This document shows, piece after piece, positions 5,157-51,549 of a stretch of DNA of 64,000 bases. Numbering within the stretch: position 1 is the first letter of the stretch; each line of letters starts with the position of its first letter. Under the pieces are notes generated by a model. It was given only the letters and a program-made list of their open reading frames with translations, had not been told where the DNA came from and made no database searches. Position numbers and translations under genes: made by a program. Source of the DNA: Gordius albopunctatus (Eukaryota); the NCBI GenBank assembly GCA_964276515.1, contig OZ193909.1, positions 13,640,001-13,704,000 on the forward strand. Reading direction: 5' to 3'.

Positions 5157-6694
5157 ATGAGTCCATCAATTCCTAATACAAACAAAACACCAAGTGTTTG
5201 GCCAACTTATAAAGGGGTTCAACAAAATCAAGTTAATCACACTAATGAGAAGCGCTTAGCCTCACTCAAAAGAAAAAATCTAGAGATCAATGAGCGTAAG
5301 CAACAAATAAAAATTTCTCTGGAAAATTTTGACAGCAATCTCTCCTCAAATATTGATGCAAGCATATTACAGAGGAAGCACATTTTTTTCAAAGATGAAG
5401 AAATTGTGAATGAATTTGATACTGCTCAGAAATATGTTTTAAATAAAAATGAAAATTCATCTCCAATTAAAAGTTTAAAAAAGAAGTTATTTATAGAAGA
5501 TGAAGAGTCAAGAACAAAGACAAATAATGATCAAATGTTATTTAAACCACAATTTGAAGGAAAGAAAGGAGAAAAATTGTTAAATCTGAGTTTAAAGTAT
5601 TTTTAATTATTCTTATATCTGTTGAATGAAGTTTTATTATAAATATTACATTAGTGTTGTGATTTTAATTCCCTTTTTTATATTTTAGGATTGGTCAGGA
5701 TCAAAGATTTATTTTGAATGAAAACTTTGTTGATAGTGGAGAATCTGATGGTGAAGAACGTTGTGAGATAAATGGAAAAAGGGTTGTAAATACTTTACGA
5801 AAAATGCAAGCTGATGGAGATGACATATCTATCAACGAAGAGATGGAAATTTATGAAAGGGCCCTACAATCAGCCACAACAAAACTTTTTGAACGCGGGG
5901 AAAGTCCAAAAAATTTAGAAGACATTGCGGATTATATACCCTCTATCAAGGGGCAAAAATATGAAAATAGTTCCTTACGTAATGACTATAATGGAATCTC
6001 GAGGTTTTTTAAAGATGTCCAAGCACCAAAAATAGCAGGGGAGGTAAGAAGTTGCTCCTCTATCATAGAAAGATTTGACCCAACTCGAGCCGATCACTTA
6101 GAAAGGTTTGAAATTAAGTCGACAATACCCGTGGAAAAGACACAATCTCCACCCAAAGAAAAAAAGAAAAAGACTGATAAAGTAATTGTTAAAACTTCAG
6201 AAATTAAAGTCGAATCTGATGAAAAGAAATATTATACGGTTTATCGCGATTTGAAAGGCGCTTTCGGTAATACATCCACCAGCTCATCCTTTACAATATT
6301 AAAGCCTCCCAATGACGTCTCTGTATCCGATGCTGCTCAAAAACCTGTTGAAAATGTGACCACTAAAATTTTTAATAAGGCTTTAGAATCGCATTTTTGT
6401 GAAGAAGAACGCTTTGTATCTCTTCCCACCCAAACCGAAGATGAATCAAATTTAACCGGCTCAAAAGGAGAATATAATTTTTTTATATCTACATCCGTTT
6501 TTGAAGACCCTACTTCGAACCTTAACGCGTTAGTTTCTAATTTTTGCCAAAGACCCAGCCCCAATGCAGATCCTGAAGCTTGGGAACGCAAAAGGGCCGA
6601 GTTATCGCATTTGTTTAAAACTAAGCGAAAACGTTATATACGCCACAAAAAATTCTCTTCACGCCGCTTACCCGCATTTGGAAAAAGAAACTAA
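5157..6694 (+). CDS. NOL8: Nucleolar protein 8-like (exons 5157-5596, 5689-6694), about 481 aa
   Basis: NEKRLASLK...KHIFF...LF...KPQFEGKKGEKLLNL|KIGQDQRFILNENFVDS matches the NOL8 core. RFDPTR..H and a basic W..KR..L C-terminus are also present. A 92-nt GT-AG intron joins ORFs 5157 and 5714 in frame. Confidence 0.85.
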
Positions 6695-7779
6695 TTGCTT
6701 TATGTATACCTATGTAGATGCTTTTTATTGTCTACGGTTTTATATTAAAAATAGGGGGCCGATGGTTTAATCAAAATGGAGGCTCTAGATCAGTGTAGAG
6801 CAGTGGATTATCTCTTTTGACATCACACTGGCTCGAAGTTTTATCTAATTAAGTCCATGTCTCAGATCCCTCATATGTTTATAAGGCATAAAATAAAAAA
6901 AATTATTCATAAATAAAACAAAGTAATGTAGTTGAAACGAATATATCAAGACAATATAAAAAAATTTACATGGTATAGTAAGTTTGTCTACATATGAATT
7001 GTAAGAGCACAAAATGGAACCGGGTGACAAGAAAACTTTAATATTTTCAAAAATAATAGAAATAGTAAAAAACTATACAACAAAGTATTTATAAAAATCA
7101 TTATTGCCACAACCCCGAAAAATCTTAGCCATATCTAAATTTATATCAGGAAAACAATCTAATTTATAGTAATTTGATCCCACAGTCGTGGAGTTTGTTT
7201 TGATTAGTTTCTTCCATCTTGACCAGGTGAGTGCCATATCTTGACTAATCTCTTTTGTTTTCATTACTTTATCGCCGGGGTCTTCCTCTCTTCTCCGCTA
7301 TCTCTATGTCAAGGACTTTTCGATTTACGTCATTCGTGCCCTTTCTTAGTATATGCCCATACCACCTAGCCAATTTTCGTTAATCATGTCCGCCATAGGT
7401 TGAATACCCATTTTTGTGATGAGAAAGACATTCGTCATATGGTCAAACTTAGTGTACCCCAAGCTCCATCGTATCATTCTAATCTCTGTGGCTTGTAATA
7501 GCTTTCCTTCTGTGGTGTTTAATGCCCATGTTTCACTTGCATATAGTAACACCGGTCTTACGATGGACTTGTAAGCTTTGCTCTTCAATCATATTGGCAT
7601 TTTCTTGTCGCACATTACAAGGGATATACTTTGCCATTTGAGACAACCTTTTTGGATCAGGGCATTGACTTCTGTTGCGCAACCTCCCTCTTCATGTAGC
7701 ATCGAGTCGAGGTATGAAAACCTTTCTACTTTAGGGGACTTTAGATGGTCATCCAGTGTGGGGCTGCCTATAACCAGAG

Positions 7780-9333
7780 TAGTGATGCGGAAAAACCGAG
7801 AAAAATCTCGGTCTCGTCTCGAAAAACCGAGACGAGAATTTGAAAAATGGAGTCGAGATCGAGACGAGAATTTTGATGTTGAGATGAGACGAGATTTTTT
7901 CGGCGAGATCTCGACTTTTTATTGATCGTTAGATTTTAGTTAATTATTGTGTATTTTAATTATGGAATATATTTGATATTAAAAAAATTCCTAAGTGTTT
8001 TAAATATTATACATTTTTGCAAAAAATTTAAAATTTGGCAATCACTTACCTTAATATTGTTAACCCCAGTGGGTATGTGAATAATTTTATAATATATTTC
8101 TCATATATAAGTATCCATAGCATTATTTAATATTACATAATTTTATGCTGAGAATGAGTTCTGATGGAATAGTAAATATTACTAAAGCATATTTGTATTT
8201 CGCAGTTACTCATCCTGCATGATGCGGTAATTATAAATTGGTGTTCAATCATTTTGAATAATTTTACAAGTTAAGCTAAGGTGGCTCGAGATTTTTGAGC
8301 ACCCGCCTAACGATTTCAAAAGTACAATAGAGTATTTTAATGACATCGTAATAGGTTAAATTTTAAATCATGAGTTTTTTAGAAGTTTATATGCTTTAAC
8401 TAAGTTCATTCAAATCTACTATAATTTCTATAATTGTAAAATATAAAATAAATATACAAACCTATACTGTATTCAATAAATAACTATTTCATAACAAAGT
8501 TAATTAGAATTGTAATGTAATTATTTGGAATATAAATTTTATTATAATGTTTTTGTCATACATATAAATCTTTAATTTAAAGTTTAAAACTTTATGTTCT
8601 TAATCCTATAATAATGCTGCTTTTATTGTACTTTTTACAACGTTTTAATTTGTGCAACTAATAATAAATTCTGTAAACAATAATAATATCATTAAAAGTC
8701 ACTCGCACTTTGTGGTTTATAGTGCTATAGTAAACATGCAATAAACACTATGGACTATAATTGATGATGGTAATATCAATGGACTTAAATGTTTACCTTA
8801 AATATGGTAAGGTCTACTTTGAAGCTTTAGCAAGAGTTAATAAAGGGTCTCAATTTGCTTAATTATGCAACTAAGTCAACTGTAGGCGAATTTATAATTT
8901 TCTAAGTCCATTTATAGTTGAGAGACACAGTTAATTTGGTACAAATGTTATAATCTGTTAAAAATAAAATTTAATTTTCTATATTTCAAATTTATTTATA
9001 GTTTTTTTAGTCTGTCTTTTCCATAGAAAATGTTATCTTTATGAATTAATTCATATCTTTATATTGTCAATAAAACGTAGGGTCCCGCTATATCTTCAAA
9101 AAGTTTGTCTTAAAGTTTTTCAAAAGATAAAAAAGTTTGCCATTGGATTTTTTAATAATTATTTAATATTTGTAATAAAACATAAAAAAATTTATTTCAT
9201 ATATATATTTTTTCTAAAAAAGTCGAGACGAGACCGAGATTTTTCTAGACCGAGACGAGATCGAGATTTTCGTAATCGCTCCCGAGACGAGACGAGATTT
9301 TGTTTTCGAGACCGAGACGAGATCGAAACACTA
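7780..9333. mobile_element. Non-autonomous hAT-like element with CGAGA subterminal repeats
   Basis: Termini TAGTG...CACTA. Perfect 8-bp TSD AACCAGAG at 7772-7779 and 9334-9341. Confidence 0.85.
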
Positions 9334-10364
9334 AACCAGAGCTGTTAAAGTTCATTTAGATATGAACTAGTTCAAGTTCATAGTTCAGTTGGAAAAAAAC
9401 GAACTAGTTCAGTTCTTAGTTCAAATTTTACAAAAAGAACTAGTTCAGTTCATAGTTCAGTTCATTTTTTTTATTATAGAATTTTAATCCGATCCTAGGG
9501 GTCTTTGAAAAACGTTTTATCTGATCCAAAATCAGTTTTTTGAATCTAAGTCCGATCAGCAATTTTAAAATTCTATGAAACAAATTTTTATTAATGATTG
9601 AGTTTAATTATTTAAACTTATTATTGTTTAATTTAAATCAGAAAAAGTCCATTATAAATTCTAATTTAATAAACATTTTTCATATACCAATATCGTATCC
9701 CTTGATACGAGTATATCCCCCTCCCCTCTTCCCATATTATTTTATACAAAGGGATGCCGCCACTACACATCTCTCACTTTCTAATTAATTTCAGTACGTG
9801 ACTTTCCCTTTAAAGCGGTTTAATTTCTAGTACGCGTATATCCCCCCCCCGACGCGCTTATATGTATTTGTTATTTCTCCCCCCGATATTATTATTGCAC
9901 GCGTCATTGAATTTGATAACGCGATTCGATTATTATTATAATTTTCCTTCTTGGTTTTATAATTAATAACTGAATGAAACAGGCATGTAAGGGTTAGTAC
10001 AATAAATTTAAGTATATCCTTATTCCGGCCCTATCCCCCCACCTCGTAATCCACCTATATCACCGCTCGTATATCTTCTAAAATAAAAATAGAAAAATAA
10101 TCCATCGTACGAATACGATAACCAACAAGCCTTTTTGTACAAAACTAAATCAGCTATAAAATTCTGAAAAACAGTTTCATTTAATAAAAAATGTTATTAC
10201 GTAAAAAAATTCAATGTGTAAAACTTTTATTTTTATTTCAAACAATATAATATATAACACCCTTGGGTAAACCTGCCCTGCTATATATGGTTGGTCACCA
10301 TTTTGTTTGTCAGATGGCATAATCTCATTAAATTCGTCCGTTTCTTTATATGTATCATAATAAT

Positions 10365-11078
10365 AAACTTGGGCCTTCGGCCCTCGTGGGAAGGAGGAGG
10401 GAGGAAGGGAAGGGAGAACTAGATTCATCTATACTCCGTATAAAAGTAGCATATTTGTTATGCAATTTATGGGCGAGAAAGGTGGGAAGGGGCGAGAATG
10501 CCTATAGACGGGTATTAAATGCAAAATAATTGGACTGACGGCCATAGGGTAATTATCAATGTTAGCTTAGCCTAATATACCAATTCAAAAGCAAAAAAAA
10601 ATTAAAATTTCGAATCACAATTTGGCCATTGGTCATTTTTTCCATTGGTCAGTAGCCAGCGGACGGTCAAAAAGTCATATTATCAGTGGCATTAACAAGA
10701 ACAAAATATTAATTTAATTTAAAAAAAATTTGTCCTCTCCGGGGATTGAACCAGCAAGTCAGAAAGTTGAAAGACGATGTAAGAACCTTGGAGGACTGAC
10801 GGGCATAGGGAAATTATCAATGTTAACCTAATATACCGATTCGAAGGCTAAAAAAAATTTCGAATCACAATTTGGCCAATTTTTTCCATTGGTCAGTAGC
10901 CAGCGGACGGTCAAAAAGTCATATTATCAATGGTATTAACAAGAACAAAATATTAATTTAATTAAAAAAAATTTGTCCTCTCCGGGGATTGAACCGGCAA
11001 GTCAGAAAGTTGAAAGACGGTGTAAGAACTTGGAGGACGGACGGACAACAAAAAGCGAGCCCATAAATTGCATAGCAA
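10365..11078 (-). mobile_element. DINE-1/HINE-like (Helentron-associated) non-autonomous element with about 2 central repeats
   Basis: Inverted subterminal repeats at 10455-10474 and 11059-11078, a GTCC microsatellite next to the 5' subTIR, a ~240-bp internal tandem duplication, and a terminal GGGCCGAAGGCCC hairpin at 10371-10383. Confidence 0.65.
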
Positions 11079-11499
11079 TTAATAAATAATTACAATTGAT
11101 AATAGAAATCAGGGGAAAGTAGATTGGAATTGGACTTGAATAAAATATTAGTTTCAAAATTATCATTTAATAAACATGAACTAATAAAATAGGGTTGGCA
11201 TGTGCATTCAACAAATATTTCTATATGGAAATTCTAATTAAACACACGATATATACTTTATTAGAAATTAAATATTTAACGACAAAGTTAGTTATAAATG
11301 GGAGGCAATTTTTTGTTATATAAAATGGGACCATAAACATTAATATCATAGTTTAGTTTTCATTATAATGATTGTTGTTATATGTGTATTTATATTTGAC
11401 ACACTGAATTTGATATAAATGTTATAATTCGCTAAAACTAAAAAAATTTATATTCTACACTTTACGCTTATTTATAGTCTTTTTTTATATTGCACTTTC

Positions 11500-11788
11500 T
11501 ATTTTAATTTAATATTGGATCTATCTTTATATTGTCATGACACGTCGGTATTAAAATTTTTGAAAAATAAAATAGTTTGCCATTTCTGATTTTTCACTTA
11601 TTTTATAATTTTATAACACCAAGAGAAATTTCTATTTAGTATAACATTTTTTTTGAAAAGTCGAGACAAGTCGAGAAATCTCTCGAGACCGAGATTTTTT
11701 TAGACCGAGACGAGATCGAGATTCTCATAATCGCTCCCGAGACGATATTTTCTTTTCGAGACCGAGATGAGACGAGATCGAAACACTA
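11500..11788. mobile_element. Right end of a second CGAGA-family hAT-like element
   Basis: Similar to 9050-9333 and ends with the same CGAGATCGAAACACTA. No left end found. Confidence 0.7.
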
Positions 11789-14539
11789 AAAACAATCAAA
11801 CTCGGCTTATAAAATCATTTTAAAGAATAATTTTTGAGATTAACTAGTTGATTTATATTGCAAAGTTCAAGTTCAGAATATTAAAAAAAGAACTAGTTCA
11901 TAGTTCACGGTGTAAAAAAAGGAACTAGTTCAAGTTCATAGTTCAGTTCAGAAAAAAGTGAACTAGTTCCTAACAGCTCTACCTATAACGTACATTTCCA
12001 TTTATACCGTTTTTCGATAGTTGAACATTAAACCATATCCAGCTAAGCGTTTTGACCACTTTTCGGCTTCTTCGAATACTTTCTCCTTTGTTTCCTCGCA
12101 TAGTACTATATCATCGGCATATGGCATACACCATGGCGAGGGCTTTTGAATGTCTCTCGTTATCATGTCTAAAGCTATATTAAATAAAAGGGGACTAAAA
12201 GCAGATCCTTGATGTAGTCCAATTTTAACCCGAAAATGTTTAGAGTCTCTAACTGTTGTTCTAAAGCAAGAGTTGGAGGCTTCATAAATATTTTCTATAA
12301 GCAGTATATATACGTCAGGGCTCAGGGATATTTTGTTTTCTCAGGCACCACCATGCTAAATGGTTGGGGACCGTGTCATAAGCTATCTCCAAGTCGATAA
12401 AAACCATATGTAGGTCTTTCCTGTTTTTATCATACCTATCCAACATTTGTCTTAGTGCGAAGATTGGGTCGATTATGGATTTGCCAGCCACAAATCCGAA
12501 TTGATTAGCCAATATTTCCACGTCGTTTTTCAGCCTTGTAAATAAGATCCTTTCCAAAACCTTTAAGGAGTGGCATGTTAGCTTGATACGTCTGCAATTG
12601 CCTCAATCCTAAGGATCTTCTTTGCCTTTAAATAATGGTATAATCGTGCTTGCCCTCCATTGATTAGGAATTCGCTCTTCTAGCAATATCTTGTTAAGGA
12701 GGTTCGCATGGTGGAGACTCCCTCTTCACGACATCCGAGCAATGCTTCCATAGATATTCCATCTGGGCCATTTGCTTTTTATTTTTGCATCTTGTTTTCT
12801 GTCCTAACTTCATCCAACTGAAAGAGTTCGACCATACTTATATTTGGCTCAATTTTTTGAAGGGAATCCTTGTCATTTGCAATGTTCATAAGTTTCTTAA
12901 AATATTCTTTCCACCATTTCCTTCGGCTTGAATAAGGTTTGACCCTTCTCGTTTTTGACTATTTTAAGAACTCCGACATCGCCTTCTCCCTTATATTGGC
13001 CAATTTGTACATAAGTCTATCGCCCCCTTTGTAATCCAGTTTGTTTGCCATCTCGGTGTATGCGGCATTCTTCGCTATTGCAACGGCCTTTTTTGTGGCC
13101 CACTTTGCGTCTCTATACTCTTGATAATCCCCCGATTTTTTTGATTTATGCCACAGTCTATATAGATTTTTCTTTCTTTCGATGAAATCTTTAACCGATT
13201 GATCCCACCACCATAGCTCCCTATTCATAGCTTTACCTCCTTTGGTCTGTCCTAGAGCACGAATCGCTGTTTCCTTAATGTCCTTAGATAGCGTTTCCCA
13301 ATCGTCATCTACGTCCCTTTGCAAGTCCCTTGCACCCAAGAGTGAGGAGTCATTTTGATGGTATTCTTTGTTCGTCGACGTATCCTTTGGCCTTTCGTAT
13401 CAATTTCGAGGTTCATAGATCTTTCTTCTTTCGGGAAATACTCTTCTGTCGAGATCCATAACAAGGGGACGATGTTGCCTGGCGAATTCATTTCTCGGTG
13501 TTACTTTGCAATCCTTGATACTGCATAAGTCATTTCGTCCTTTCCACTTCTATAAGTCACAATATGATCTTCGCTCTTTTGAAAATAGATGTTAACGATC
13601 GCCATGTCATATGCTTGGGATACTTGGAGAAGTTTTTCCCCTTCTTTGTTATTTAGACCATGCTCATAGCCTCCATGATTGCGTTCATACACGAGGCGAT
13701 CTTTCCCTACGTGAGTGTTGAAATCTGCCCCAATAATTAGACTTTCTTCCTGTCCTATTCCTTGTATTTCTTTTTCCAATGAATCGAAGAATATGTCTTT
13801 CTCTGATTCCATAAACCCAATTTGGGAAGCATACGCGCACATGACGGTTAGGAGGCCCTCTTGATCTGCAATCTTCACCCACATTAGCCTGTTGGAACAA
13901 CGCTTGACTTCCACCACCTTGTCCTTGAACAATTCGCTTAGAAAGATACCGACCCCGTTTATACGATTTGATGATCCACTGTAGAATAGTTTGTAGCCTT
14001 CTCCTAACTCCCGAGCTTTGGTTCCGTTCCACAGTGTTTCTTGTATGCAGGCGATGTGTACCTTTCTTATTTTTAGCATTTGTGCGACCCCGAAGCTCTT
14101 CCCCGTCCACATTCACACATTCCAGCACGTTATTCGCATTATTTCCACAAATAATTTCCTTAACCGACTTCGTTGTGAGTGGGGCAGTAACCCTAGTGTA
14201 TTTTTTACATTGCACGGGCGGGGTATGCAGTGCGCGTCGTTTGTGGAGGACGCCATAGCTTTCTCTTGTAAAATCTTATTTAAAACTATCATGATTTTGG
14301 AGTTGGTATTTATAGCCGGTTTCCGACCTGACGCCAACCCTCCACTTTTTGCACACGGACTTGAGACCATTGTAGGTAGTGTTATAATTATTAATCACTA
14401 TAATAATTCATTCAAATAAAGTTAGTAATTAAAATCTGTGATATCAAGTAGTTTCATAAATGGCACTTCAATTTGTCAAATATATTTTACAAACCGCAGA
14501 TTATTCAAATTTTATAAAATATATTAACTCGATAGGTAA

Positions 14540-28998: not shown

Positions 28999-31900
28999 AT
29001 GATGTCCGACAATGAATCACCTTCACCCCTCATTGAAAATGTCACTAACGGCGACGGCAAATTGTCCAGTTGTCAAAGCATGGAATCCCTCGCTACGACC
29101 AATAACAATTCATCCATCGGCGAAGAGGTAAATGAATACAAATATAAAATTTATGATTAGAGAAATCAAGTTCTATATGTCTCATTTAAAATTTACATTA
29201 GAAATAGGTAGGCTAAGCACCGAAAGACTTTGATAAATTACCAATTATTGTTTACAAAAAATTTTATGGCAAGTTTTTCGATAGTTTTTTAATGTGTTAC
29301 CAATTTTAATTTTTTTATAATTAATCACTTACCATTATTGATAATTCAGCATCCTATAAGAGTTTTTATTGGATATTTAAATTGATATTAGTTATGGTCT
29401 AGAATATTTAAATTACCTATCAATATTCGCAAAGTAAAAAAGTTTTACAGACTTTAATGTAAAAAAATATAAAGTAATTGTGAGCTAAATTTATAAAGTT
29501 ACAAAATTAAAAAAACGCGACACAATTTCCTGACTTATAAAACTACTAATTTTAAAATTATCTATTGGGGAAGTACATAAAATAATGATGGGCATAATAA
29601 AATGTTTAAGGTTTAGACTTGTAAAGCTAACGGCTTGATTAAAGGGATCACTTTTAATGCCAAGACAATCAGCCCAATTTAAATTTCACAAATGAAGTCT
29701 TACGATATTTTAATTGATTAAAATTTTATTCGTTTCTGTGTTACAATAAATTCAAATTCAATGTCAGGGTTTCTACCAAACGAGGGGATGGGGGAAGAAA
29801 TTTTCTCCTAAGGTTCCATACTAAATTTTAAAAAAACCGAGTGAATGATGTCATAACGCCAATTTTAATAACAAATTGCACCACCACTCCCCCTAAAAAA
29901 TCCCTGAGTAATATAATATAATGAAAACTTTAGACTAAAGCATTACTCAAATATTATATTCATTTTACAATATCTTTTAATTGCCAAAATTATGTTTAAG
30001 TTTGAACGTAAATTAAATATGATAGCATATTTTTGTTCAAAAATAATGATTAAACAACTATTTTAGTGACATCAATTCTAACAATAAGTAAATTCTGTGT
30101 AAATTAATATATCTCATGTCGAGGAATTTAATTTAAACTAGTCGTTCTATTCTATTTAACAATATGGGGCTATATTAATTTTTTACAGTTTCTCTTTGTA
30201 TAGTCGTGTTGAGCCCAAATCAATCTGTCATCAGTTATCGATTAATAGATTTAAGGTCAAAATGTCTTGTTATACAATGATTATCTGCCATTCTATCACA
30301 ATCTCATTGTATTTTTATCCCCAAAAAATCAAAAACTTTAAATAAAATCCCACTAGCCTTTAGTCAAAATGGAAATTCGGTTGTTTAAGAATAAATAAAT
30401 GAATAAATAAATAAATAATAAATAAATAAATAAATAAAATAAATAAGATACAAATGCATTTATAAATCTATAATATATATAAGATATGTGAATAATGAAT
30501 ATAATAATAATTTCCGTGTTTTAAGTGTTCACATATTAACCAGCGCCTAAAGTGACATACTTGACAGCAATAAAAATATAATAAATTCAAACTTGCCGAT
30601 TGTGATGTAATTGCTTTGACCTCAAAAACACATACATTGACCAGCCTGCTTAATATACTTAAAATTTAACGAAAGTTGGAAGGTTAGGGGCATTTTGATC
30701 TTTTTCCACACTAAATTTCTTAGACTGCGCACGCAGACCGCTCATCATCGATAAAAAAGAAACAATTTTTTCCGCCATTTTGAATTATGAAAAATTAAGG
30801 AAAGGTGATATACGAAAGTCTTTTTGGTCAATTAATTATAAAAAAAATAAATTAAATGAGGTAAATAGACTACTATAAGCTAACTAAAAATGTAAAATTT
30901 ATGGTAAAAACATTATAGCGATTTATCTCTAAATTACTTGATCTTATCCTATGATTTATATGAGTGATAGTATCTACTCTATAATAATTTGATAATAATA
31001 GATCTTCTACCATGGTCGTAGCCAGCATTGGAATAAGAGAAGGGCAATAATGATTTAAGGAGCTGCAAATGATAATTTTTTTGAACTTTTAGCCATAATT
31101 TTAATAAATTCTAAATAATTTTTGGATTTAGAGGGGGGCAGCCGCCCCTTCCTGCCTCCCCCTGGCTACGCCCAAGTCTTCTACACCTTTTATTATGCTT
31201 ACCTTGTAGCTTGTTATTTATTTTATTTGTAAACATTATTGATAGATATATATAGGCATGGGCGTAGCCAGGGGGTGGCAGGAAGGGACGGCTGCCCCCC
31301 CTCTAAATCCAAGAATTCCTAAAAAACATAATTAAGCTTAAATGTAAAAAAAATTCGTTTTGCCCTTCCTAAAGCATTAGTACCCCCCCCCCAGTTGAAA
31401 TTCTGGCTACGCCCATGTACATAAGTGCACAAGCACAGAATGGTGAATACGGATGGCACAATTTACTAATTGCAACATGTAGCATGAGCAGTCTATGAAA
31501 TAAAAAATTACGAACTAATAAAATAAAAAATTTAGTAAATTAATGTAATTAAAATACAAGTCGAAATTAATTTTGGAAATGAGGCTTTATCGCCTTTAGA
31601 GTGAACGTCCCCCCCACCCTGATCGAACTTTTAAACGTTTCGCCCCCTCCCCTAATCCAAAACCTGGTTACGCCCATGCATAAAGGGTTTTCATAAGTGG
31701 CAATTTTTTAACAATTTAAATTACACTCTCGTGAAGCTGACTTTTGATTTAAGAATGCAATATAAAGATATGGCAGTTCTAATTAAACTATGCTACGAAG
31801 GGGGGGGGGGCTATGCAATATTACCCAAAGAGTGAGGGGATTTTAATTAATTTTATTATTAATTGCTATGAAATTTATGGGCTCGTTTTTTGTTGTCCGT

Positions 31901-34900
31901 CGTCCACCAAGTTATTTACACCAGCTTCCCGACTTGCAGGTTGTGGATCGAGACCCGGAGAGGACAAAATTTTCTTATTTTTATTTAAATTAATATTTTG
32001 TTCTTGTTAATGCCATTGATAATATGACTTTTTGACCGTCCGCAGGCTACTGACCAATGAAAAAATGACCATTGGCCAAATAAATCCAAATTTTTCGTTT
32101 TTCGTTTTTGAATTGGGTAACATTGATAATTGATATGGTTCCCTGTTCCTCTCCAAAGGCTTATGCCTCTATTTAATGTGGGTTTGAATCCCGGCGAACG
32201 TTCTAAATTGCAGGTTCGAGACCCGGAGAGGACAAATTTTTTTATTTTTTTTTAAATTAAATTAATATATTGTTCTTGTTAATACCATTGATAATATGAA
32301 TTTTTGACCGTGTTCTGGCTACTGACCATTGAAAAAATGACCATTGGCAAATTGTGTTCGAAATTTTTTTTTCGTTTTTGAATTGGTATATTAGGTTAAC
32401 ATTGCTAATTACCCTATGCCTCTACTGATATGGGTCCCTGTACCCCTACAAAAGCTTATGCCTCTATTAATGTGGGTTCGAATCCCGGAGAGGACAAAAA
32501 ATTTTATTTTATTTTTAAATTAAATTAATATATTGTTCTCGTTAATACCATTGATAATATGACTTTTTGACCCTCCGCAGGCTACTGACAAATTGAAAAA
32601 ATGACCCTTGGCCAAATAAATCGAAATTTTATTTTTTATTTTTTTTAAATTAATATATTGTTCTTGTTAATACCATTGATAATATGACTTTTTGGCCGTC
32701 CGCTGGCTACTGACCAATGAAAAAAAGACCTTTGGCCAAAATATGAATAGAAATTTTTTTGGTTTTTTTTTGACTCGTATGTATTTATAGACCATCTCTT
32801 GGTACTGACCGATAAAAAAATGACCATTGGCCAAATTGTTTTTAAGTAAAGGCCAGTGGTTCTTTTAATATTTTATTTTTATCATAAATATTTTTCACTA
32901 ATAATGATACCATATCTGTTTTTAGATTATGTTTAGTTTCATATACTAAATATATAAATAATTTCCATTATTTTAAAGTCTTTTATTTAAATTTAATTAT
33001 TAAAACACATGTGTCTAGTTAATTTTATACCCCGACCCTCAAAATTTTTTGTAAAATTGTGGGAAACATTTATGTTATTAAACTTAAATTAGAAGAGTTA
33101 GGTATATTAGCTATGTAAATAGTGTTTTAATTGCTATGCAATTTATGGGCTCGTTTTTTGTTGTCCGTCGTCCGTCCGTCGTCCACCAAGTTATTTACAC
33201 CAGCTTCCCGACTTGCAGGTTTGGATTCGAGACCCGGAGAGGACAAAATTTTTTTATTTTTTTTAAATTAAATTAATATTTTGTTCTTGTTAATACCATT
33301 GATAATATGACTTTTTGACCCTCCGCAGGCTACTGATCAATGAAAAAATGACCGCTGGTCCAATAAATCGAAATTTTTAATTTTTCGTTTTTGAATAGTT
33401 TAACATTGATAATTACCCTATGCCCTCCCCTACAAGGGCCTATGCCTCTATTTATATGGTTCCCTGTTCCCCTCCAAAGGCTTATGCCTCTATTTAATGT
33501 GGGTTTGAATCCCGGCGAACGTTCTACATTGATGGTTCGAGACCCGGAGAGGACAAAATTTTTTATTCTTTTTTAAATTAAATTAATATATTGTTCTTGT
33601 TAATACCATTGATAAAATGACTTTTTGACCGTGTTCTGGCTACTGAACATTGAATAAAATGACCATTGTCCAAATTTTGTTCGAAATTTTTTTCTCGTTT
33701 TTTTTGACTCTTATGATTATTCCTGTTAATACCATTGATAATATGACTTTTTGGCGGTCCGCTGGCTGCTTACCAATGGAAAAAATGACCATTGGCCAAA
33801 GTGAGCATCAAAAATTTTTTTCCGTTTTTTTGGCTATCATTGACTTATAGAGTATCTGCTGGGTACTGACCAATGGGAAAAAATGATCATTGGCCAATTT
33901 TCGTTTTTTTAGACTCGTATGTATTTATAGACCGTTGTAATGATCTGAAACGTCGACATTCCCCCCCCCCAGAGATGCATCAAGATTTGAAGGATTTGAA
34001 AGATTACGAAGCATCTACTACAATTGCTTGGGTCACCAAAATGTTTTTAGACAAAAAATTTACGGTTCACCCAAAATTCGTTAAAGATTTAGAGAAGTAT
34101 TATGCTGCAAAAACTGAATCCCTCAATTTCGAAGAGGAAAATGTCGAGACAGCTAGAAATATCATAAATACATGGGTTCTTGACCAAACAGCTTAATTGA
34201 CCGTGTTTTATCTGCACCCCTACCTAATAGTTTAAACAGAATGTTATTACTAAACGTTTTTTGCTTTAACGCCAAATGGGAAGTTCCCTTTAAAAAATCT
34301 TTAACTATTTGGAATGACACCTTTCTCGCTGCTCAAGCAAATATCATAGTCCGAGTACCATCTTATATCAGCTATTTTACCTATTTTTGTTTTAATAGTA
34401 ATTTAATAAATACATATTTCTCAATGTTAGGCACCTTTTAAAATTAAAAAAATAATATTTGTTATCGCTAAATTAATTTTGATAGGTTATTTATTAACCC
34501 TAATTAATGCCCCCCCCCCAAAACATACTCTCGAGAACCCGATTTCCCCAATAGCTACATTGAAATAAAAATAGATCGAAAAAACTCTCGAGTACCCCCT
34601 TCCCCCAATAACTTAATCTTACTTTAATTACTCAACCTTGGAATTTAATGGGTTTTCTGAGGGAAACGGATAAATCGTATAGAGAGGATGACTTTGTACA
34701 TTTTTAAATACTCATTTCTTTATTTCCAGTACAACATCTACAAACTTAATCATTAACTATTAATACAGCGCGCATCATTTTAAATTCACAAAAGGTAATT
34801 ATTAATTTAATTTCAATAAAATAATTTGTAATTTAAACTTATTTAAGATTTCGAATCTTCTAGAAAGATAATCTTTTTACGCTATTTAGATTAAATTCAT

Positions 34901-37900: not shown

Positions 37901-38556
37901 CATTTTATATGTTTTATTGGTAGGAAATTAAAGTCTTTACATAATTCCCGGAGGTATGATCTCTATTATGGTGATAGATGCTGCTTTTGCTTTTTAAGCA
38001 TAATAGTCGTTGTTTCTTAGACAAGTAGTCCTAACAAGATTAAAACTTTCTGTGGGCAAACCTATCGCTTTAATGCGCACTCGTTTTTTATTGAAATTAG
38101 CACTTATAAGACACGGTAAAAACTATTTTTCTGAACTAATTAATTATAGATGAACCTCGTATAGAATTTTTTCTAAAGGGTCTCCGTTTTGATCCCGACT
38201 TAAGTCAGACCTTGAGACTCGAATTCGCAAAAACCAATACCAAAGTCGCTAAACCCAAAATTCCAATTGTCGTTAACGGATGTCATAATGTCACCGCCGC
38301 AGCCTCGATCCTTAACGGAGCCGGCTTAGTGATAAATGGACCACTGAATGGCCACCATCATTTGTTATCCAATCCCTACTATCACACCCAACAACATCTT
38401 CAATTGGGAAACAACATTCAGCATCCTCACCCTTCTCATCTCCACCAATCTCTAACACCCTTAACCGCCTTCCCTCAAGTTATAAATTGTCAATCGGCAT
38501 TCCTCAGGCCCATTACATTACCTGGTATTTATTTTGCATCCCCACCCCTTGATTAA
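28999..38556 (+). CDS. cpo: Couch potato / RBPMS / MEC-8 family RRM protein (exons 28999-29127, 36824-36901, 37596-37649, 37741-37803, 38179-38524 or to stop at 38556)
   Basis: Spliced translation with GT-AG phase-0 introns: ...[110 protein letters not shown], the diagnostic cpo/RBPMS RRM. The 3' end is uncertain. Confidence 0.95.
30389..30450. repeat. (AAAT)n microsatellite
   Basis: Imperfect AAAT run visible directly. Confidence 0.9.
31011..31176. mobile_element. Small hAT-type MITE
   Basis: CATGGTCGTAGCCAG...CTGGCTACGCCCAAG. Perfect TSD TCTTCTAC. Confidence 0.9.
31257..31417. mobile_element. Small hAT-type MITE
   Basis: Perfect TIR CATGGGCGTAGCCAG. TSD TATATAGG/TACATAAG. Confidence 0.85.
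31862..32845 (+). mobile_element. HINE/DINE-1-like element with an expanded central tandem array
   Basis: Starts TTGCTATG(A)AATTTATGGGC plus GTCC repeats, then about 4-5 units containing GGTTCGAGACCCGGAGAGGACAAA and GGCTACTGACCAATG. Same family as 10365-11078. Confidence 0.7.
33129..33932 (+). mobile_element. Second HINE/DINE-1-like copy with tandem array
   Basis: TTGCTATGCAATTTATGGGC, GTCC repeats, and repeat units near-identical to 31862-32845. Confidence 0.7.
33935..34360 (+). pseudogene. Intronless serpin gene fragment
   Basis: [32 protein letters not shown]...[13 protein letters not shown] then, after a frameshift, [17 protein letters not shown]. These match the serpin hE-hF and s3A motifs. 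No reactive centre loop seen. Confidence 0.85.
35805..35994 (+). mobile_element. 3' end of the HINE-like family
   Basis: Matches the reverse complement of 10365-10640, including the pyrimidine tract and the GGGCCGAAGGCCC hairpin at 35976-35988. Confidence 0.7.
37153..37299. mobile_element. Small hAT-type MITE in a cpo intron
   Basis: CATAGGCGTAGCCA...TGGCTACCCTCATG. Perfect TSD CATGATGT. Confidence 0.9.
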
Positions 38557-41500
38557 CAATTTCCTTATTTCTAATATAATGATGCGCTAAAGGACGGTGT
38601 TATTTTTAGAAGTTGTAGCTAGTATAAAATTTGTTTCTTCTGTATAAACAAATTCTGAATTGTACTAAGCTTGAAACACAGACTTTATATTATATTTTGT
38701 GATGCCTCGTTTGTAAGTACAGTTAACAAATTATCAGTTATCAGTGGTTATCATAATAAAAGACAGACTCAAAATTACAATTTGGCAAAAGAGATGTTTT
38801 TATAATTATATTCAAACTAAGGTGAAAATACGACTCCAACTCTGTTAGCAAGCCCGACTGATGGTCTTATTCACAATATATATCAAGATTTACCATCCGG
38901 TTATGTTCACACAACCCATTTGCAGCAATCGGGCGCCCCCGTATGTAATAACAAATGGAAATTTATGTATTAAAATTGCGTTTATATATTAATATCTATT
39001 TATTAATTTTTCCTTTTTAATTTACATTTTTACTTTACAAACTTTATGTTTAAAAAGTTCTAGATGACACCCATATGAATTTTAAGTGTATAAATTTGTG
39101 TCAGCCAACTAATCTATCTAAGGCAATCAGTCGCTTATGTTTAATTTAAAGCACGTTTAAAAAATGTCTAACTGTTTGAGGTTGATTAGAAAAATTCTAG
39201 GTTTGAGGTATGCTTTAAGGGCTGCATATGACATCTCCTCTTTTTTATACTATAAACCTTTATAAACACAATATGTACAACGGTGTATTATTTTTAACAT
39301 ACTTACAAATAATTTAGCAGCAATTACAATGCTTATACATATACACAATGACAGACACTTATCACCCCATTGCCCTTAGAGGTCTTTGCTATAGTCCCGC
39401 AACACAATATCAAGGATTCAATAAATCCCGCGGAACAAATAAATAATTACATGAACCTGGATTACACAATAAATAATCGACATTCTATTATTACGCAACA
39501 TACCTCCACCCAAATGAAAGTTATTCAATTAGACACCAACAAAACCTTCTCCCCGCCTAAGCAATCTCATACGCGTGTGAAAACAAATGCAAATAACCTT
39601 AGATGTCTAGTAAAGTTGTCAGGCAACGGAACATTGAACTCACAGTATTTAAATAGTTTATCGCTTAATCGCATATTGACAATGCCAACCGATTCCGTCC
39701 ATGATAAACATCTTCAAAGGCATACAGTCAACAATCCTATACCAACCATTTCTAATCATTCTAATAAAATAATCTCCGAGTAATTTATTAATTACATTAT
39801 ATCTCTTCCCACCAATGGTTGGAGCATTCCCACAACATTTTAGAATCACACTTATTCGAAGTTGAATGGTACAAATCTAAAAATGTGAGACATCTCCTAT
39901 AATAATTGGTGGGAGAACTATGTAAATTCATTTGATATACCTGATCCAACGCTTTATTTATAATTAAGAGTTCATCGATTTACTCAAATAATTCCACTAT
40001 TGGATGCACACATAATGGAGTAATTTTAGAAGAATCTTTGATTTTTCACAAAAATCCTCAAAGCAATTTGACTGAAGTTTTAGATGCACTGCTTGGTCCA
40101 CGACATTGCAATTCGGTTATATCGTGCGTTGCAGCAAATAGTTCAATTATCGATAAAAAAATATTGCCTTAAAAGCAACATGATGGGTCAGGTATGATAA
40201 GCAATCATCCTATATATGATCAAATATGTGAATTTAGTAAATTGTAGGATTTATATTATCTGCGGACCAAGCGAAAACTTGGCTTAAAAGGAAACAGGCA
40301 TGGTTAACATATCCCAGGCATTATCTCAATATAGGTAGCTACCCCATCTTAAAATGTACATAGATAGTTCATCCTCGTATAGCCCTGACCATTAATAAAT
40401 GCAGCTTTGGATAAACCCCAATCCGTCCATTTATGTTATTTTTACATTTATCATATTGACGAAATAATGACTGTGATAGAAAAGTGTAAAAGTAACCTCG
40501 GCAACTAATTTATACCAACAAACACCTCTCGTTTTGTCATTCCACGTATAAACTATAATAACTTATGTTTAAATTCCATATGCTGATAATCGGCAAATGT
40601 TTACGTTATACATTATTATATAAATCGTTATATTTAAATAATTTACTGATTAATGTATATGTATAAATGCTTATGGGCCAGTTTTAGTCCGATGTTAATT
40701 ATATATTCACTATTATTATCATAAAAATAACGTTATTGAATTTGTTGTATGAAGATTTAATAAATTTGTTGTAATATTAAAGACTTTATTATTTATCACT
40801 TTAATAGGATCAAATTTAATGCTCTAAAAAGCATTTTCGACAAAAAGCGTTTTATGTATAAAAACTGTGTGTTTTAAGACGTTTTCTTGTCACTTCAAGA
40901 ATTATATTGTATTTTGGTGTATTTAAAATACTTTAAATGTATAATAGTGTCTAAAAAACATTTACATATAAAAGAATCTTTTCTTCGATCCTTTTCTTCT
41001 TTATCAGGCATTTAATCCCACAACCGTGGGGTTTGTTTTAATGAGTTTCTCCCCTCTCAGTCCGGTAAATTTCATGTCTTGATCAATCTTTTTCATAAAT
41101 CTGTCGACTTACTCTTTCCACGTCACTTGAGGTCCTATTCATGCTTTCCTCGTTCACTCCATGTCAGTACTTTTCGATTTAAATCATTCGTTTTCTTATT
41201 TTTGTTAATCGTGTCCACCATAGGCTGAATACTTATTTTTGTCATGAGAAAGTCATTCGTCATATGGCCGAGATTAGTATACCCCAAGCTCCACCGGATC
41301 ATTCACTCCCTGGCTTGTTGTAATAGCTTTTATTCCGTGGTAGTTTCACCTCCATAGAGTAACACCGGTCTTCAAACCATTTTTGCATTTTATTGTCGCA
41401 CATTGCACCGGATATACTTCGCTATTTAAGCCATCCTTTTTGAATCTAGGCATTGACCTCTGTTGCGCAACCTCCTTCTTGGTGTAGCATCGAGCAGATG

Positions 41501-41615
41501 TATGTAAACATGTCTATTTTGGGGTTGGTTACGCTGGTCAGTTTCATTAGGGGCTTTTATTAACGCGTACTCTACAGTCTACACTATAAACTAGACGCGA
41601 TATAATGGGGACTAA

Positions 41616-41675
41616 GAGGTATAAACAAGAGAGGGCAGTATGCGTAAACACGTAAAAAGAAAAAGCGAGCGAATG
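41616..41675 (-). repeat. 60-bp terminal repeat (3' copy)
   Basis: Exact reverse complement (60/60) of 44226-44285. Confidence 0.97.
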
Positions 41676-41697
41676 CGATGGTGTCTCTTCTTTGTGT

Positions 41698-41704
41698 TTA
41701 TATA
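41698..41704 (-). promoter_or_regulatory. Putative TATA box of the RT element
   Basis: TATATAA on the minus strand begins 29 nt upstream of the first base of the repeat (CATTC, Inr-like). Confidence 0.6.
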
Positions 41705-41712
41705 GCCCAGTG

Positions 41713-43780
41713 TCACCTATCTATGGGGGTTTCTGTTCCGTTTTCCTCTATGGTTTGGCTGGAATTTTCGTCTTCCCAAAAACCCAAATCGACTTGTTCC
41801 TCGATATTCTCCAGTTCGGGGATTGAGACGCCTTGGGGTGGTATGTTTGTGAACGTGCTAGGCACCGAGTATCTTTCCGGCGGAAATCATGTCCGTGATT
41901 GCATGTCGGCCGGGTTGTTGGTAGATGAGATCCATATTAGGTTGAAGTGCAATCGTATCAAGTGTGAGACGTCTTAAGCCGCCACAAAGTGGGCGATTAT
42001 GCTCTCCAGGACCGGGGAGTTCGAGCCCCCCTTTAGTAGGACGAAGTATGCCGTGGTCGAGTATGTCACGACTTTCGGGTATCTATATCCGTTGTAGAAA
42101 GCGTGGAGGTAGGTATATATATTGTTGCTATCGTCTCCGTGGCTGTGATGTGTCCTGCATGGACCCAAGGCAACCCGATGGCTTCTGCTGCATTTTCGAA
42201 CGATATTGAGAAGTTTTGGTCGCCCCACGTGATCCCGATGTGGCTGTCGGAGGCATCGGCGTATATCGTAGTGTCGTGGTTTTGGTACAGTGGTATTATT
42301 TGCGTTGGGACGGCCAGACACCCCTGTAATTTAGCCTGTGCGGCTGGTCTGTTGTGCGTGGTAACGTTCTTGTTTGCCGCGATGGTTTAGAATGTGCTGA
42401 ATATCCTCGACATTCCCATGAGGTTATAAAAGAAATAGTTCAGCACTCCGAGGGCTTCCAGTAGCGAGTAATCGACCGGGGGTGTTCTTGTTGACAGGAA
42501 TAAGAACAGGATATCTGCTGCATAGGTGAGCCTCCTTTGTATATCGGGTGAGCATCTGATTGAGTGTATTTCGAAATCTAAGACAAGGCCCAGATATTCT
42601 ATCGATGTTTCTGGTATAAAGGACGATTTGCTTACGTTAATGGTTAGGCCCCAATCGTTAGCCATCTCAGCTATATTGCCCAAGTCCTCCATGACATCAT
42701 TGTCTTCCTCAGAAAAGATAAGGATATCGTCTAAGTAGAGGTTATAATTGCATTTGGTGACCGCTTTCTTTACCAGGTCGGCCACTATTGTTTGTAGTAC
42801 GTAGGGGGAGAAGGATGCCCCCATCACTAGTACTTTATATTGGTACATTTTGTCCCGCCATTTGTACCCGCAGTAGCGTTTTGCGTTCTTGTGCAAGGGT
42901 ATACTGAAGAATGCAGCCTTGAGGTCTATTTTGGCTGCATAGTTGGCGACTGCTAGCTTCTTTGCTGTTAGTGGGATGGTCGCCAGTTTGACAGGGAGAT
43001 GCCTAAAATTCTTTGAGGCGTCGGATAGGACAGTGATTATGCCAGCGTCCACATTTTTATTTGCTATGAAGAAAGTTTCGGAGGTGATGGCGAGCGCTTG
43101 CGTCTCGGAGACAACCCCCGTTTACTTCATAGTCGTCAAGTAGGCTGGACTCCCCTTGAGATTTTTTTATGCCTATGGGGCCTGAACAGGCCTTCATTCC
43201 TCCTGATCTTAGGGAGGTCAAGGGGTGGCTTGAAACCTTCGAAGGCCACCTTCAGCGTAAAAGGTGACATAAGTGGGTGCGAGTTCAATCTCAATGTTTT
43301 AATGTCGAGTGGCCCTGTCGGTTTTGTTGTGGAGCCCGGGTTACCCCATAGGAAAATGGCCTTGTGGTCATTCACAAGGTTCGGGATATTCCCCGAGCCT
43401 GCGTCGCCGCCGAGGGATTCGTCGTCGTTGGGGTTGATCCGGTCGCCCACTTCGGTGGGTGGCCTTGGGTATTCCCAAGGCGACAAAGGAGGGGGCTGCG
43501 CAGGCCCTTCATTGTTGTCGTCGTTTACCGGGTGCGCTGGAGAAAAGATCTGGCTGCGGGTCTCCCTTAAAAAGTTTTTAATTTGTTGCCACCACCTGGG
43601 AGAGCCCTGATCTTTATCTCCGTTGAGAGTCGGTTCGCCATTAGGCCAGCACTCCCACCAGTCGACGGTGTCACGGATTAGTTTACGAACGCGGGGCAGG
43701 GCCGCGTTCTTTTGGAAGTGTCGGCTCGGCTTTTTGCCTCTGCCCCTGCCAGCTTCTGGAAAAAACGACTTTTTGGGGAT
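41713..43780 (-). pseudogene. pol: reverse transcriptase + RNase H, with stops and frameshifts
   Basis: RT: KIDLKAAFFSIPLH, YQYKVLVMGASFSPYVLQ, YLDDILI, IEYLGL. RNase H: IYADASDSHIG, HITATET, VVTYSTTA, WISSTNNPADMQSR. An acidic tail ends just before the TATA box. Confidence 0.9.
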
Positions 43781-44226
43781 TTAGGCATTGTGACCTCTAC
43801 GTCCTTAAATCCCATATCGGTTAGCCAGGTTGTATCGTGTTTGGCGGCTGTTGCCCAATTGTATTTGATGGCCAGGCAAAGAGTTTTGAGTTGCTTGTCG
43901 TGGGCAGCTAGCACTTCGATTGGTGAAGTAGGAAGGCATACTTGGGACATCAAGATGGCGTATTTAGCCTCGTACTTATCGCGTTTCTGTACGCGTTGAT
44001 CAGGGTCTCTTAGCAGCTCTTCGAGGCCCTGAGTGTGATTAGGTATCTCTTCGCATAAGAACGCCGGGGTCTTTGGCGGTTCAAGCGACGGTACTATCTG
44101 CACCGTTGATGACATTTGTAGAGGTGGTGGTATAGGATGAACCACCTCCGTCTGGCTTTGTGACAGGGACCCCACGATTGACATAGAGTTTTCGAGCATT
44201 GTTCTCATGGCGTCAATCTGAAGTTC
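43678..44226 (-). CDS. gag/core-like ORF1, main part
   Basis: Open frame ELQIDAMRTMLENSMSIV...LAIKYNWATAAKHD directly upstream of and overlapping pol. Function is inferred from position only. Confidence 0.55.
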   Translation of the reverse strand, partial: ELQIDAMRTMLENSMSIVGSLSQSQTEVVHPIPPPLQMSSTVQIVPSLEPPKTPAFLCEEIPNHTQGLEELLRDPDQRVQKRDKYEAKYAILMSQVCLPTSPIEVLAAHDKQLKTLCLAIKYNWATAAKHDTTWLTDMGFKDVEVTMPKSPKSRFFQKLAGAEAKSRADTSKRTRPCPAFVN

Positions 44227-44285
44227 ATTCGCTCGCTTTTTCTTTTTACGTGTTTACGCATACTGCCCTCTCTTGTTTATACCTC
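44226..44285 (+). repeat. 60-bp terminal repeat (5' copy, within the inverted segment)
   Basis: Exact reverse complement of 41616-41675. Confidence 0.97.
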
Positions 44286-44321
44286 ACTTTCTCCCTAAAA
44301 TTGACCTTTTCTCCGGGATAC

Positions 44322-44468
44322 ATGCCGAGAAACAAAGACAATAACGATGAAGACCAAGAAGCCAACCGCCTTTCCCTGTGCCCTGTTAGACCAGGGGTTC
44401 CCGGTGCGAACTCAGCGGAACTGGTAGCTCAACTAGTGGAGATGCAAAGAGAGCAGAACCGAGCGAGA
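44322..44468 (+). CDS. Probable N-terminus of ORF1 in inverted orientation
   Basis: ATG 36 nt after the repeat gives MPRNKDNNDEDQEANRLSLCPVRPGVPGANSAELVAQLVEMQREQNRAR, which is cut off at the RTE junction. Confidence 0.55.
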
Positions 44469-45734
44469 CCTTTTTGCGGCTCTCTTTGCTACCCTATACT
44501 CTTGATAATCCTACGAATTTTTTGATTTATGACATCATATATAGAATTTTTTTCTTTCGGTGAAATCTCTAATTGAATGATCCCACCACCAAAGTTGCCT
44601 ATACATAGCTTTGTATCCTTTGGTCTGTCCTAGAACCCAAATCGCTGTTTCATTTATGTCCTTAGTTAGCGTCTCTCAATCGTCGTATACGTCCCTTTGC
44701 AACTTCCTTGCATTCAAGAGTGAGGACGCTTTTTGATGATATTTATAGTTCGCTGACCTATCCTTTAGAATTTCAAATCAAATTCGAGGTTATTAACTCT
44801 TTTTATTTCAGTAAACACTTTTCTTTCAAAATCCATCATAAGTGGGTGATGGTGCCTGGCGATTTCCTCTCCCGGTATAATTTTCCAATCCTTGATACTC
44901 CATAAGTCTCTTAGCCTTATGGGCAGATAGTCAATTTGACTAAAATGCTTCCCATTTATATAAGTCGAATATAATTTTTTCGTTGATCGCCATGTCGTAA
45001 GTTTGGTAAACTTGGAGAAGTTTTTCCTTTTCTTTGTTCTTCAGACCATGCCCATAGCTTCCATGATTTCGTTAATAACTGAGGCTATTTTTCCCTAGGT
45101 CGGCGTTGAAATCCGCCTCAAAAATTAGCCTTTATTCCTGTCCTATTCCTTGTATTTCCTTTTCCAATCATAGAATATGTGTTTCTCTAATTCCATACAC
45201 CCAATTTTTGAAGCATAAGCACACATAACGGTTAAAGGCCCCCATAATCTGCAACCTTCACCCACAATAACCCGAGGAACAACGCTTAACTTCCACAACC
45301 TTGTCTTTAAACGATTCGCATAGAATGATACCGAACCCATTTCTACGATTTGATGACCCACTGTAGATTAATTTGTATGCTTCTCCTAACTCCCAAGCTT
45401 TGGTTCCGTTCCACCTCGTGTGGGCAGGCGATGTGAGACTTTCTTATTTTAGTATTTCGACCTCGATGCTGTTTCCCATCAATATTTCCCCATTCCAGCA
45501 TGTTATTCGTATCCTTCCCACAGCTAATTTCCTTGTTGTAAGTGGGGCAGTAACTTTAGTGTATTTTTCACATTGCGGAGGACGCCCTAGTTTTCTGTCG
45601 TAGAATTTTGTTTGAAACTATCATGATTTTGGAATTGGTTTTTATAGGCGGTTTCCGACCTGTCGCCAACCCTCCACTTTTTGCCCACAGACTTGGGGTT
45701 GGGACCATCGTATTTAGTATTAAAAGGATTTTTA

Positions 45735-50989: not shown

Positions 50990-51549
50990 AAAATAAAAGA
51001 TTGATTTCGAAATTGATTTATATTATTCTTTCATCGATAGAATAATAGCAGAATTAAACATAAGATTTTATGAAATTAATTCTAATTTATATAAGTCCTT
51101 AGAAGGTTTAAACCCTTCATCCCCTTTTTTGCGATAAATCTCTTTTATCAGAAATAATTAACCATTATGAATTAAAACTGGAAGACGGCAAAATAAAAAT
51201 GGCAAAAAATTTTATAACACATTATAACTCTTTATCTTAAAATAAAATAAAATGCAATGACATTTTTTCGCTTATTAAAATCTTGCCCCCAATAGTGTTT
51301 CCAAATTTTACTATTTTGATTAAAATAATTTTAACTAACCCAATAACTTCATGTTCATGCGAAAGATCGTTCTCATTGCTAAAACGGATTAAAACTTATC
51401 TTCGTTCGACAATTGGACAAGATAGGTTATATTCCTTAGCTTTATTGAGCTTCGAACATGACTTTGTAAATGTTATTCCCCTGGTTGATATTATAAATTC
51501 GTTTGCAACATCGAGTAAAAGGCCTAATGAACTACTATTAAAAGACTAA
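50990..51549 (+). pseudogene. hAT transposase C-terminal dimerisation domain remnant
   Basis: FPNFTILIKIILTNPITSCSCERSFSLLKRIKTYLRSTIGQDRLYSLALLS. The upstream part is frameshifted. Confidence 0.9.

Follow-up and report, generated by a model that had tools for sequence, protein, structure and literature searches.

Within a 64,000-nt stretch of Gordius albopunctatus DNA (contig OZ193909.1, positions 13,640,001 to 13,704,000; the whole stretch is called the window and is numbered from its first letter), an RTE-type long interspersed nuclear element (LINE) is interrupted by a 2.9-kb foreign retroelement segment, hereafter the insert. The interrupted LINE (copy 2) was compared with another copy (copy 1) by self-comparison of the 64-kb window, and both lie on the minus strand. 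The RTE clade label comes from an earlier sequence-only reading and is not tree-based; copy 1 matches RVT_1 and, weakly, Exo_endo_phos, and the arms flanking the insert represent the APE endonuclease and the 3' region of the reverse transcriptase (RT). The features of the locus are listed below.

7158..14370, minus strand: RTE copy 1, the reference, in two parts (7158-7774 and 11990-14370) with a nested insertion between them
40960..40977, no strand: left half of a candidate eroded target-site duplication (TSD) of the RTE, partner at 45712-45729
40978..41571, minus strand: 3' arm of RTE copy 2, old and decayed, 79.5% identical to copy 1 and 78% to a 3' fragment at 19100-19480
41572..41615, minus strand: 44-nt junction piece, a decayed RTE remnant or a 3' RNA hairpin of the element
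41616..41674, minus strand: segment best read as the 3' copy of a 59-nt terminal redundancy (R)
41698..41704, minus strand: predicted TATA box of a U3-like promoter
41713..44226, minus strand: main part of one long broken open reading frame (ORF), with an N-terminal region, RT (43121-42387), RNase H (about 42300-41890) and a short acidic tail
44227..44468, plus strand: inverted 5' block, with 5' R (44227-44285), 5' untranslated region (UTR, 44286-44321) and the ORF start ATG (44322)
44229..44235, plus strand: 7-nt microhomology, the reverse complement of 44460-44466
44469..45710, minus strand: 5' arm of RTE copy 2 (APE endonuclease region), old and decayed, 83% identical to copy 1

A foreign segment replaces part of the LINE

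The two arms of copy 2 aligned with copy 1 over 40995-41555 (copy 1 7158-7765) and 44469-45715 (copy 1 13088-14375, 83%), and about 11994-13087 of copy 1, which carries the RT core (RVT_1 matches within 12005-12602), had no counterpart in copy 2. These alignments and the gap over the RT core bear out the earlier proposal that about 1.1 kb of the RTE had been replaced by a 2.9-kb foreign segment. GC content was 49% in the insert versus 40% in the RTE arms. The inner junctions lack a TSD, as had been reported, and neither a poly(A) tail nor a TSD was present at the insert. The right junction was placed at about 44466-44469, which corrects its former position. All parts had been described as lying in one orientation; the main block of the insert and both RTE arms do share the minus strand, but 44227-44468 is inverted. 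The outer flanks had also been suggested to be an eroded TSD. Their identity (13 of 18 positions) was reached or beaten in 104 of 500 shuffles and is at chance level, and old decay would also yield about that identity.

Short-read contigs came from two runs of one study (X1 and X2), possibly the source of the window itself; only assembled contigs of the runs were used, and summed contig depth was not taken as copy number. A third run (X3), with only a small share, was left out of any judgement of habitat, and no RNA run was among the runs listed, which has no bearing on expression. These contigs covered most of the insert with 0 differences at single-locus depth, and one of them (run X2 record 44256-44682) spanned the right junction, again with 0 differences. 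Depth at 41500-41599 was at least that of a single locus (825 versus about 650 in run X1, 311 versus about 180 in run X2), and no contig spanned the left junction among the matches listed.

Copy 1 itself is interrupted by a nested insertion of 4.2 kb, flanked by a TSD of 8 bp (7767-7774 and 11982-11989) whose length suggests a hAT-like element. The site of this insertion lies at most about 5 bp from the RTE position of the left junction of copy 2, by chance or at a fragile site.

Terminal repeats, candidate promoter and inverted block of the insert

The segment 41616-41675 recurs as a perfect inverted repeat (60/60) at 44226-44285, a feature overlooked in the sequence-only reading. The 3' copy of R, with 0/59 mismatches to the 5' copy, starts at a predicted +1 A (41674) in an initiator-like CAKTY, and the TATA box lies 30 nt upstream, directly past the last ORF stop (41715). 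Promoter prediction used the general TATA and initiator consensus sequences. The TATA box is one of 2 TATAWAW sites on the minus strand of the insert, and TATA and initiator pairs at 28-32 nt spacing occurred only 4 times in the whole 64 kb on both strands, the pair at 3' R being one of them. The 5' copy of R, on the plus strand, begins at the same initiator with no counterpart of the 3' promoter upstream, which argues for an RNA template.

In the inverted block, a pyrimidine-rich leader precedes ATG 44322, which opens 49 codons ending at the RTE junction; this stub and the long frame keep the same register at the breakpoints. The block is multicopy, as is the remainder of the insert (run X1 has 16 contigs at 44409), and is bounded by the 7-nt inverted microhomology, which was reached by none of 2250 equally spaced tile pairs within the insert. 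A paralog contig (724 nt, 87% identical) aligned gap-free over 43775-44228 and ended there, and a contig of identical depth covered 44311. The distance from R start to R start is 2,794 nt. The 60-bp repeat is best understood as the terminal redundancy of a unit of 2,794 nt, and the simplest reading of the insert is one RNA with the order R-UTR-ORF-U3-R, whose first 242 nt were inverted upon insertion.

The 44-nt piece between R and the 3' arm is likely a decayed RTE remnant. Its 9 nt adjoining R match the missing part of the RTE at copy 1 12198 (a match as long arose in 12 of 3000 shuffles), and its full-length alignment to the RTE is borderline (92 of 2000 shuffles). The piece also folds as RNA (z -3.67), about as well as 3 of 119 insert tiles, and the alternative is a 3' RNA hairpin of the element. 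At the 3' end, a U3/R hairpin has a folding z of -2.5. An epsilon-like 5' hairpin was considered and rejected, as the 5' UTR does not fold better than its shuffled versions (z +0.5 to +1.7). DR1/DR2 were not found in the insert, which holds just two unrelated 10-mer direct repeats.

The insert is probably younger than its LINE

The 5' arm of RTE copy 2 contained 8 stops in 342 codons (2 in copy 1), versus 3 in about 863 codons of the insert (Fisher p = 0.003), and frame breaks gave a similar contrast with all 10 RTE breaks counted (p = 0.0006). Fourteen gaps in the 5' arm are bases missing in copy 2, and mismatches there were spread over the codon positions as 58/48/72. A third RTE fragment, comprising the 3' end only (19089-19487), served in a three-way comparison of the 3' arm, in which 49 of 325 columns were private to copy 2, versus 22 and 26 for the other two copies. 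At 5-10% decay of the insert, the lack of any mismatch between the R copies would have P = 2e-3 to 2e-6. Because the RTE arms are more decayed than the insert, the insert is probably much younger than its RTE, as judged from the sequences, and this age difference argues against a single chimeric integration.

The insert encodes an RT and RNase H, and no integrase was detected

The RT of the insert matched RVT_1 (E = 4e-25, Pfam), and blastx to protein P0001 of Gordionus (Nematomorpha) spanned RT and RNase H in three frames. The ORF is broken near 43698, 43120-43160 and 42108-42126, with premature stops at 42389, 41976 and 41889; an additional stop (43124), inside the uncertain break zone, was not counted. 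The motifs MGxSxSPY and NPADxxSR are present; the likeness to hepadnaviral rows in a published alignment concerns the RT motif only.

About 400 N-terminal residues carry no assignment to any known domain; this region had no match in Pfam, PDB or ESM Atlas, and its single-sequence fold was poor (pLDDT 49). Pfam, PDB and motif searches of the R-to-R unit gave no signal of an integrase, recombinase, Dam, endonuclease, protease, zinc knuckle, core or terminal protein. Core ORF motifs I-III, taken from data set S3 of PMC12691608, likewise had no Pfam, PDB or motif match, and terminal protein PF00242 had none on the N-terminal pieces, which are broken and have no alignable relatives. Rfam gave no credible match. 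The element family is multicopy, a single position in run X1 attracting as many as 35 contigs. The element is genomic and multicopy, with no integrase or recombinase detected, as expected of a relative of HEART elements and Blubervirales.

The segments attracting the largest numbers of paralog contigs at 80% likeness were 43000-43300, 43500-43800 and 44380-44468. Two of these three lie outside the RT, which points to conserved, unassigned N-terminal motifs.

Relatives and placement of the element

Among 1.84 billion representative proteins, only three exceeded 100 bits, all of them from Gordionus (41-44% identity), and further Gordionus relatives were located on five long Gordionus sequences. 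The next-best RT matches, at about 30% identity, were mostly DIRS-like, several with Dam. In a 182-row RT tree (182 of 194 proteins, the remainder having too little RT) and a 45-row RT tree, the RT of the window grouped with Gordionus at 100, outside the Dam-bearing clade. A 32-row RT and RNase H tree was also built, in which Gordionus proteins stand in for the broken window sequence and the rows were hand-picked and labelled from Pfam and the first tree. Here the Gordionus proteins joined seven unnamed hepadnavirus-like proteins, with a Shimodaira-Hasegawa-like approximate likelihood ratio test (SH-aLRT) support of 99. Three of these seven or their cluster mates (P0064, P0145 and P0193) exceeded the Pfam cut-off for PF00336, which had no match on the broken pieces of the window. 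A structure model of P0001 (pLDDT 88) gave its top TM-score, 0.60, with an unnamed 634-aa protein and hepatitis B virus protein P among the 50 BFVD matches listed, and a PDB fold search with this model returned general RTs only.

No relative was found in viral contigs. A metagenome scan returned 11 loci at 25-30% identity, with long LTR/DIRS-type polyprotein ORFs or fragments, and no close relative. The words 'Gordionus' and 'Nematomorpha' were not found in the 10 supplements of PMC12691608. A literature search listed neither a publication describing elements of this type from nematomorphs nor one dealing with the termini of HEART elements, which may be covered by Gong and Han 2018. The element works like the HEART type and is likely, though not certainly, of that type.

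Several unnamed proteins from ENA, Logan and JGI (P0036, P0064, P0145, P0171 and P0116) consist of a single ORF with RT and RNase H ending in NxADxPSR, three of them with a long proline/acid-rich N-terminus. Such unnamed single-ORF proteins possibly represent many undescribed HEART-like lineages.

Comparison with known systems

Features of HEART elements were taken from excerpts of PMC12691608, PMC12440569 and PMC11551314. Like HEART elements, which are genomic invertebrate RT-RNase H elements related to Blubervirales, the insert is linked to hepadnavirus-like proteins through the Gordionus clade; unlike them, it belongs to its own long-branch clade, so far seen only in one nematomorph and this window, the HEART rows consulted being those of Ixodes ticks. 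With nackednaviruses and proto-nackednaviruses the insert shares a unit of about 2.8 kb, a terminally redundant RNA, a TATA box just upstream and an RNase H directly after the RT. It differs from them in having no core ORF, terminal protein match, DR1/DR2 or epsilon, and in its single long ORF and many genomic copies. RT-RNase H of the same broad group and terminal repeats are also found in DIRS, PAT, Ngaro and VIPER elements, whereas the insert has no recombinase, Dam, internal complementary region or split direct repeats. R could be the A1/A2 of the split direct repeats A1-B1-A2-B2 of PAT, Ngaro and VIPER, but no second 44-nt piece lies upstream of 3' R.

The closest likeness in the manner of insertion is to twin-primed LINE retrocopies and endonuclease-independent L1 insertions. 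In the portion of PMC2912911 available to us, twin priming is described as both DNA ends priming on one RNA, with the cDNAs joining at short complementarity at the inversion junction, and an excerpt of PMC1920257 describes endonuclease-independent L1 insertions without TSD and poly(A), with target deletions in 18 of 21. The insert shows the junction microhomology of a twin-primed retrocopy and its inverted 5' block, with the 5' end of the RNA on the inner side, together with a target deletion. The poly(A) tail and TSD of the classical LINE endonuclease route are absent, and the endonuclease-independent route fits instead. Unlike these cases, the template here would be a non-LINE retroelement RNA and the target a dead RTE in an invertebrate. 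The RTE-clade LINE supplies the flanking arms; here it is a decayed target rather than a demonstrated vehicle.

Proposed mechanism and rival explanations

We consider it reasonably probable that the insert arose when the terminally redundant RNA of a likely HEART-type element was reverse-transcribed over its whole unit, with priming likely at the two ends of a break within an RTE that was dead by then. Priming from both ends would account for the inversion of the first 242 nt as well as for the missing RTE sequence of about 1.1 kb. A source unit (a circle, a tandem array or a repeat-bounded genomic copy) would be transcribed from the TATA promoter beyond one unit length, giving the R-UTR-ORF-U3-R RNA. 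A break would then arise in the dead RTE, and one broken end would prime cDNA at the 3' R of the RNA, while the other would prime about 240 nt from the RNA 5' end. The two cDNAs would anneal at the 7-nt microhomology by twin priming, and the target would lose 0.9-1.1 kb of RTE during insertion. The enzyme would most likely be a host LINE RT acting in trans, for which RTE is an abundant candidate, with the element's own RT as the alternative. It is possible that an RTE protein did the copying. The RTE at this locus was most likely a dead genomic target, and the nesting inside a LINE may be incidental.

Several points weigh against this interpretation. RT-only support for the hepadnavirus-like grouping was 82 (SH-aLRT), a clade of Gordionus with DIRS was not rejected by the approximately unbiased (AU) test (p = 0.155), and the trees held no named HEART, nackednavirus or hepadnavirus sequence. 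Among the 6 Gordionus RNase H-bearing proteins scanned, PF00336 was seen on P0161 alone, below the cut-off (E = 0.028). The strand of the second piece of the paralog contig is not given, so this contig agrees with the inversion without proving it. The 44-nt piece is ambiguous, and the outer right junction has no poly(A) and no clear microhomology. The frame-break contrast is not significant (p = 0.13) when only the 4 RTE breaks backed by family contigs are counted, and no empty allele was seen among the 15 of 186 joints listed. Finally, the mechanism is drawn from one locus and from the ends of this copy alone.

The sequence-only reading had proposed that the RTE machinery captured and integrated an integrase-less RNA, the RTE reverse transcriptase leaving RTE RNA for the foreign RNA and then returning, with a single integration of the chimera. 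One part of this proposal stands: the insert looks like a reverse-transcribed, integrase-less RNA, with a predicted start, no upstream promoter and an inverted 5' block with microhomology. A one-step chimera on RTE RNA is probably wrong. Several features would suit template switching: the two main parts share the minus strand, the inner junctions have no TSD, RTE is very abundant in the runs, and a candidate outer TSD is located at the RTE ends. However, the arms are much more decayed than the insert where equal age would be expected, the RTE mismatches are spread almost neutrally over the codon positions, which points to decay that followed insertion, and two switches plus an internal inversion would be demanded. 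The chimera survives only if a transcript of an already decayed RTE copy was the template, and we regard it as improbable. The capture idea may live on as a LINE RT acting in trans. A later insertion with deletion, which the same reading had named as the outcome speaking against a chimera, fits best, with RNA rather than DNA as the likely template.

Insertion as DNA would be the route if the insert were a recombinase-less derivative of a DIRS-, Ngaro- or VIPER-type element with 60-bp inverted terminal repeats, 44286-44468 then being a separate fragment. The DIRS-like nature of most next-best RT matches, several with Dam, and the AU result are in keeping with this, and DIRS elements carry inverted terminal repeats according to an excerpt of PMC6681497. 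We nevertheless find it unlikely: neither a match nor a motif of recombinase or Dam was seen in the insert, there is no internal complementary region or B repeat at the 10-mer level, the TATA and initiator geometry and the outward ORF stub fit R plus inversion better, and the paralog contig ends at 44228 rather than crossing the repeat. Also improbable is an endogenous copy of an exogenous, non-enveloped hepadnavirus relative, acquired when its DNA or pregenomic RNA became trapped in a break. The ORF occupies nearly the entire unit, whose 2,794 nt fall within the nackednavirus range of 2,766-3,105 bp given in an excerpt of PMC5604429. The proto-nackednavirus pregenomic RNA, with a TATA box and a 33-nt redundancy in the part of PMC12691608 consulted, is similarly built, and the roughly 400 unassigned N-terminal residues leave room for a divergent core or terminal protein. 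Against a virus stand the lack of core motifs, terminal protein match and epsilon-like 5' hairpin among the features searched for, and the many diverged genomic copies in the runs and on the five long Gordionus sequences, which look like a resident mobile element. An assembly artefact joining repeats is very improbable. The region is repeat-rich and its left junction was not bridged among the matches listed, but the right junction was bridged and most of the insert is covered by difference-free contigs at single-locus depth.

Implications for HEART-type elements

HEART elements are proposed as the retroelement source of hepadnaviruses in an excerpt of PMC12691608, and their mobilisation is called 'not yet resolved' in one of PMC12440569. 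A broader and more tentative proposal is that horsehair worms carry a HEART-type lineage with a 2.8-kb, single-ORF, TATA-driven, terminally redundant and integrase-less RNA like the hepadnaviral pregenome, which may spread by primed reverse transcription at DNA breaks or with borrowed LINE machinery. Hepatitis B viruses are thought to have been preceded by a retroelement stage, for which this proposal, if true, would supply a concrete structure and a way of integrating. The locus provides candidates for the promoter, the start site, the terminal redundancy and the unit length of a HEART-like element, and it displays what appears to be a footprint of RNA-templated integration, a hint at how such elements enter animal genomes. 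Its value lies in the insert as a probable whole-unit, RNA-templated copy from a lineage so far seen only in a horsehair worm, whose placement is not final. The mobilisation of HEART elements becomes testable through the ends of other copies, both elsewhere in this genome and in the publicly available Gordionus assembly.

Other features of the window

A host exon of an RBPMS/mec-8-type RRM gene lies at 38140-38556 on the plus strand, about 2.4 kb from the RTE (PDB matches, E = 1e-7). Also on the plus strand are serpin-like exons at 33870-34441 (Pfam), adjoining a dispersed-repeat cluster (31850-33900), and a decayed LTR-type remnant at 1929-3993 with DUF7041, integrase zinc-binding and weak rve matches. 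Two long open frames of 158 and 341 aa at 5130-6694 (plus strand) had no Pfam match under E = 0.08, and a fragment of the C-terminal dimerisation region of a hAT transposase is located at 51241-51549 on the same strand.

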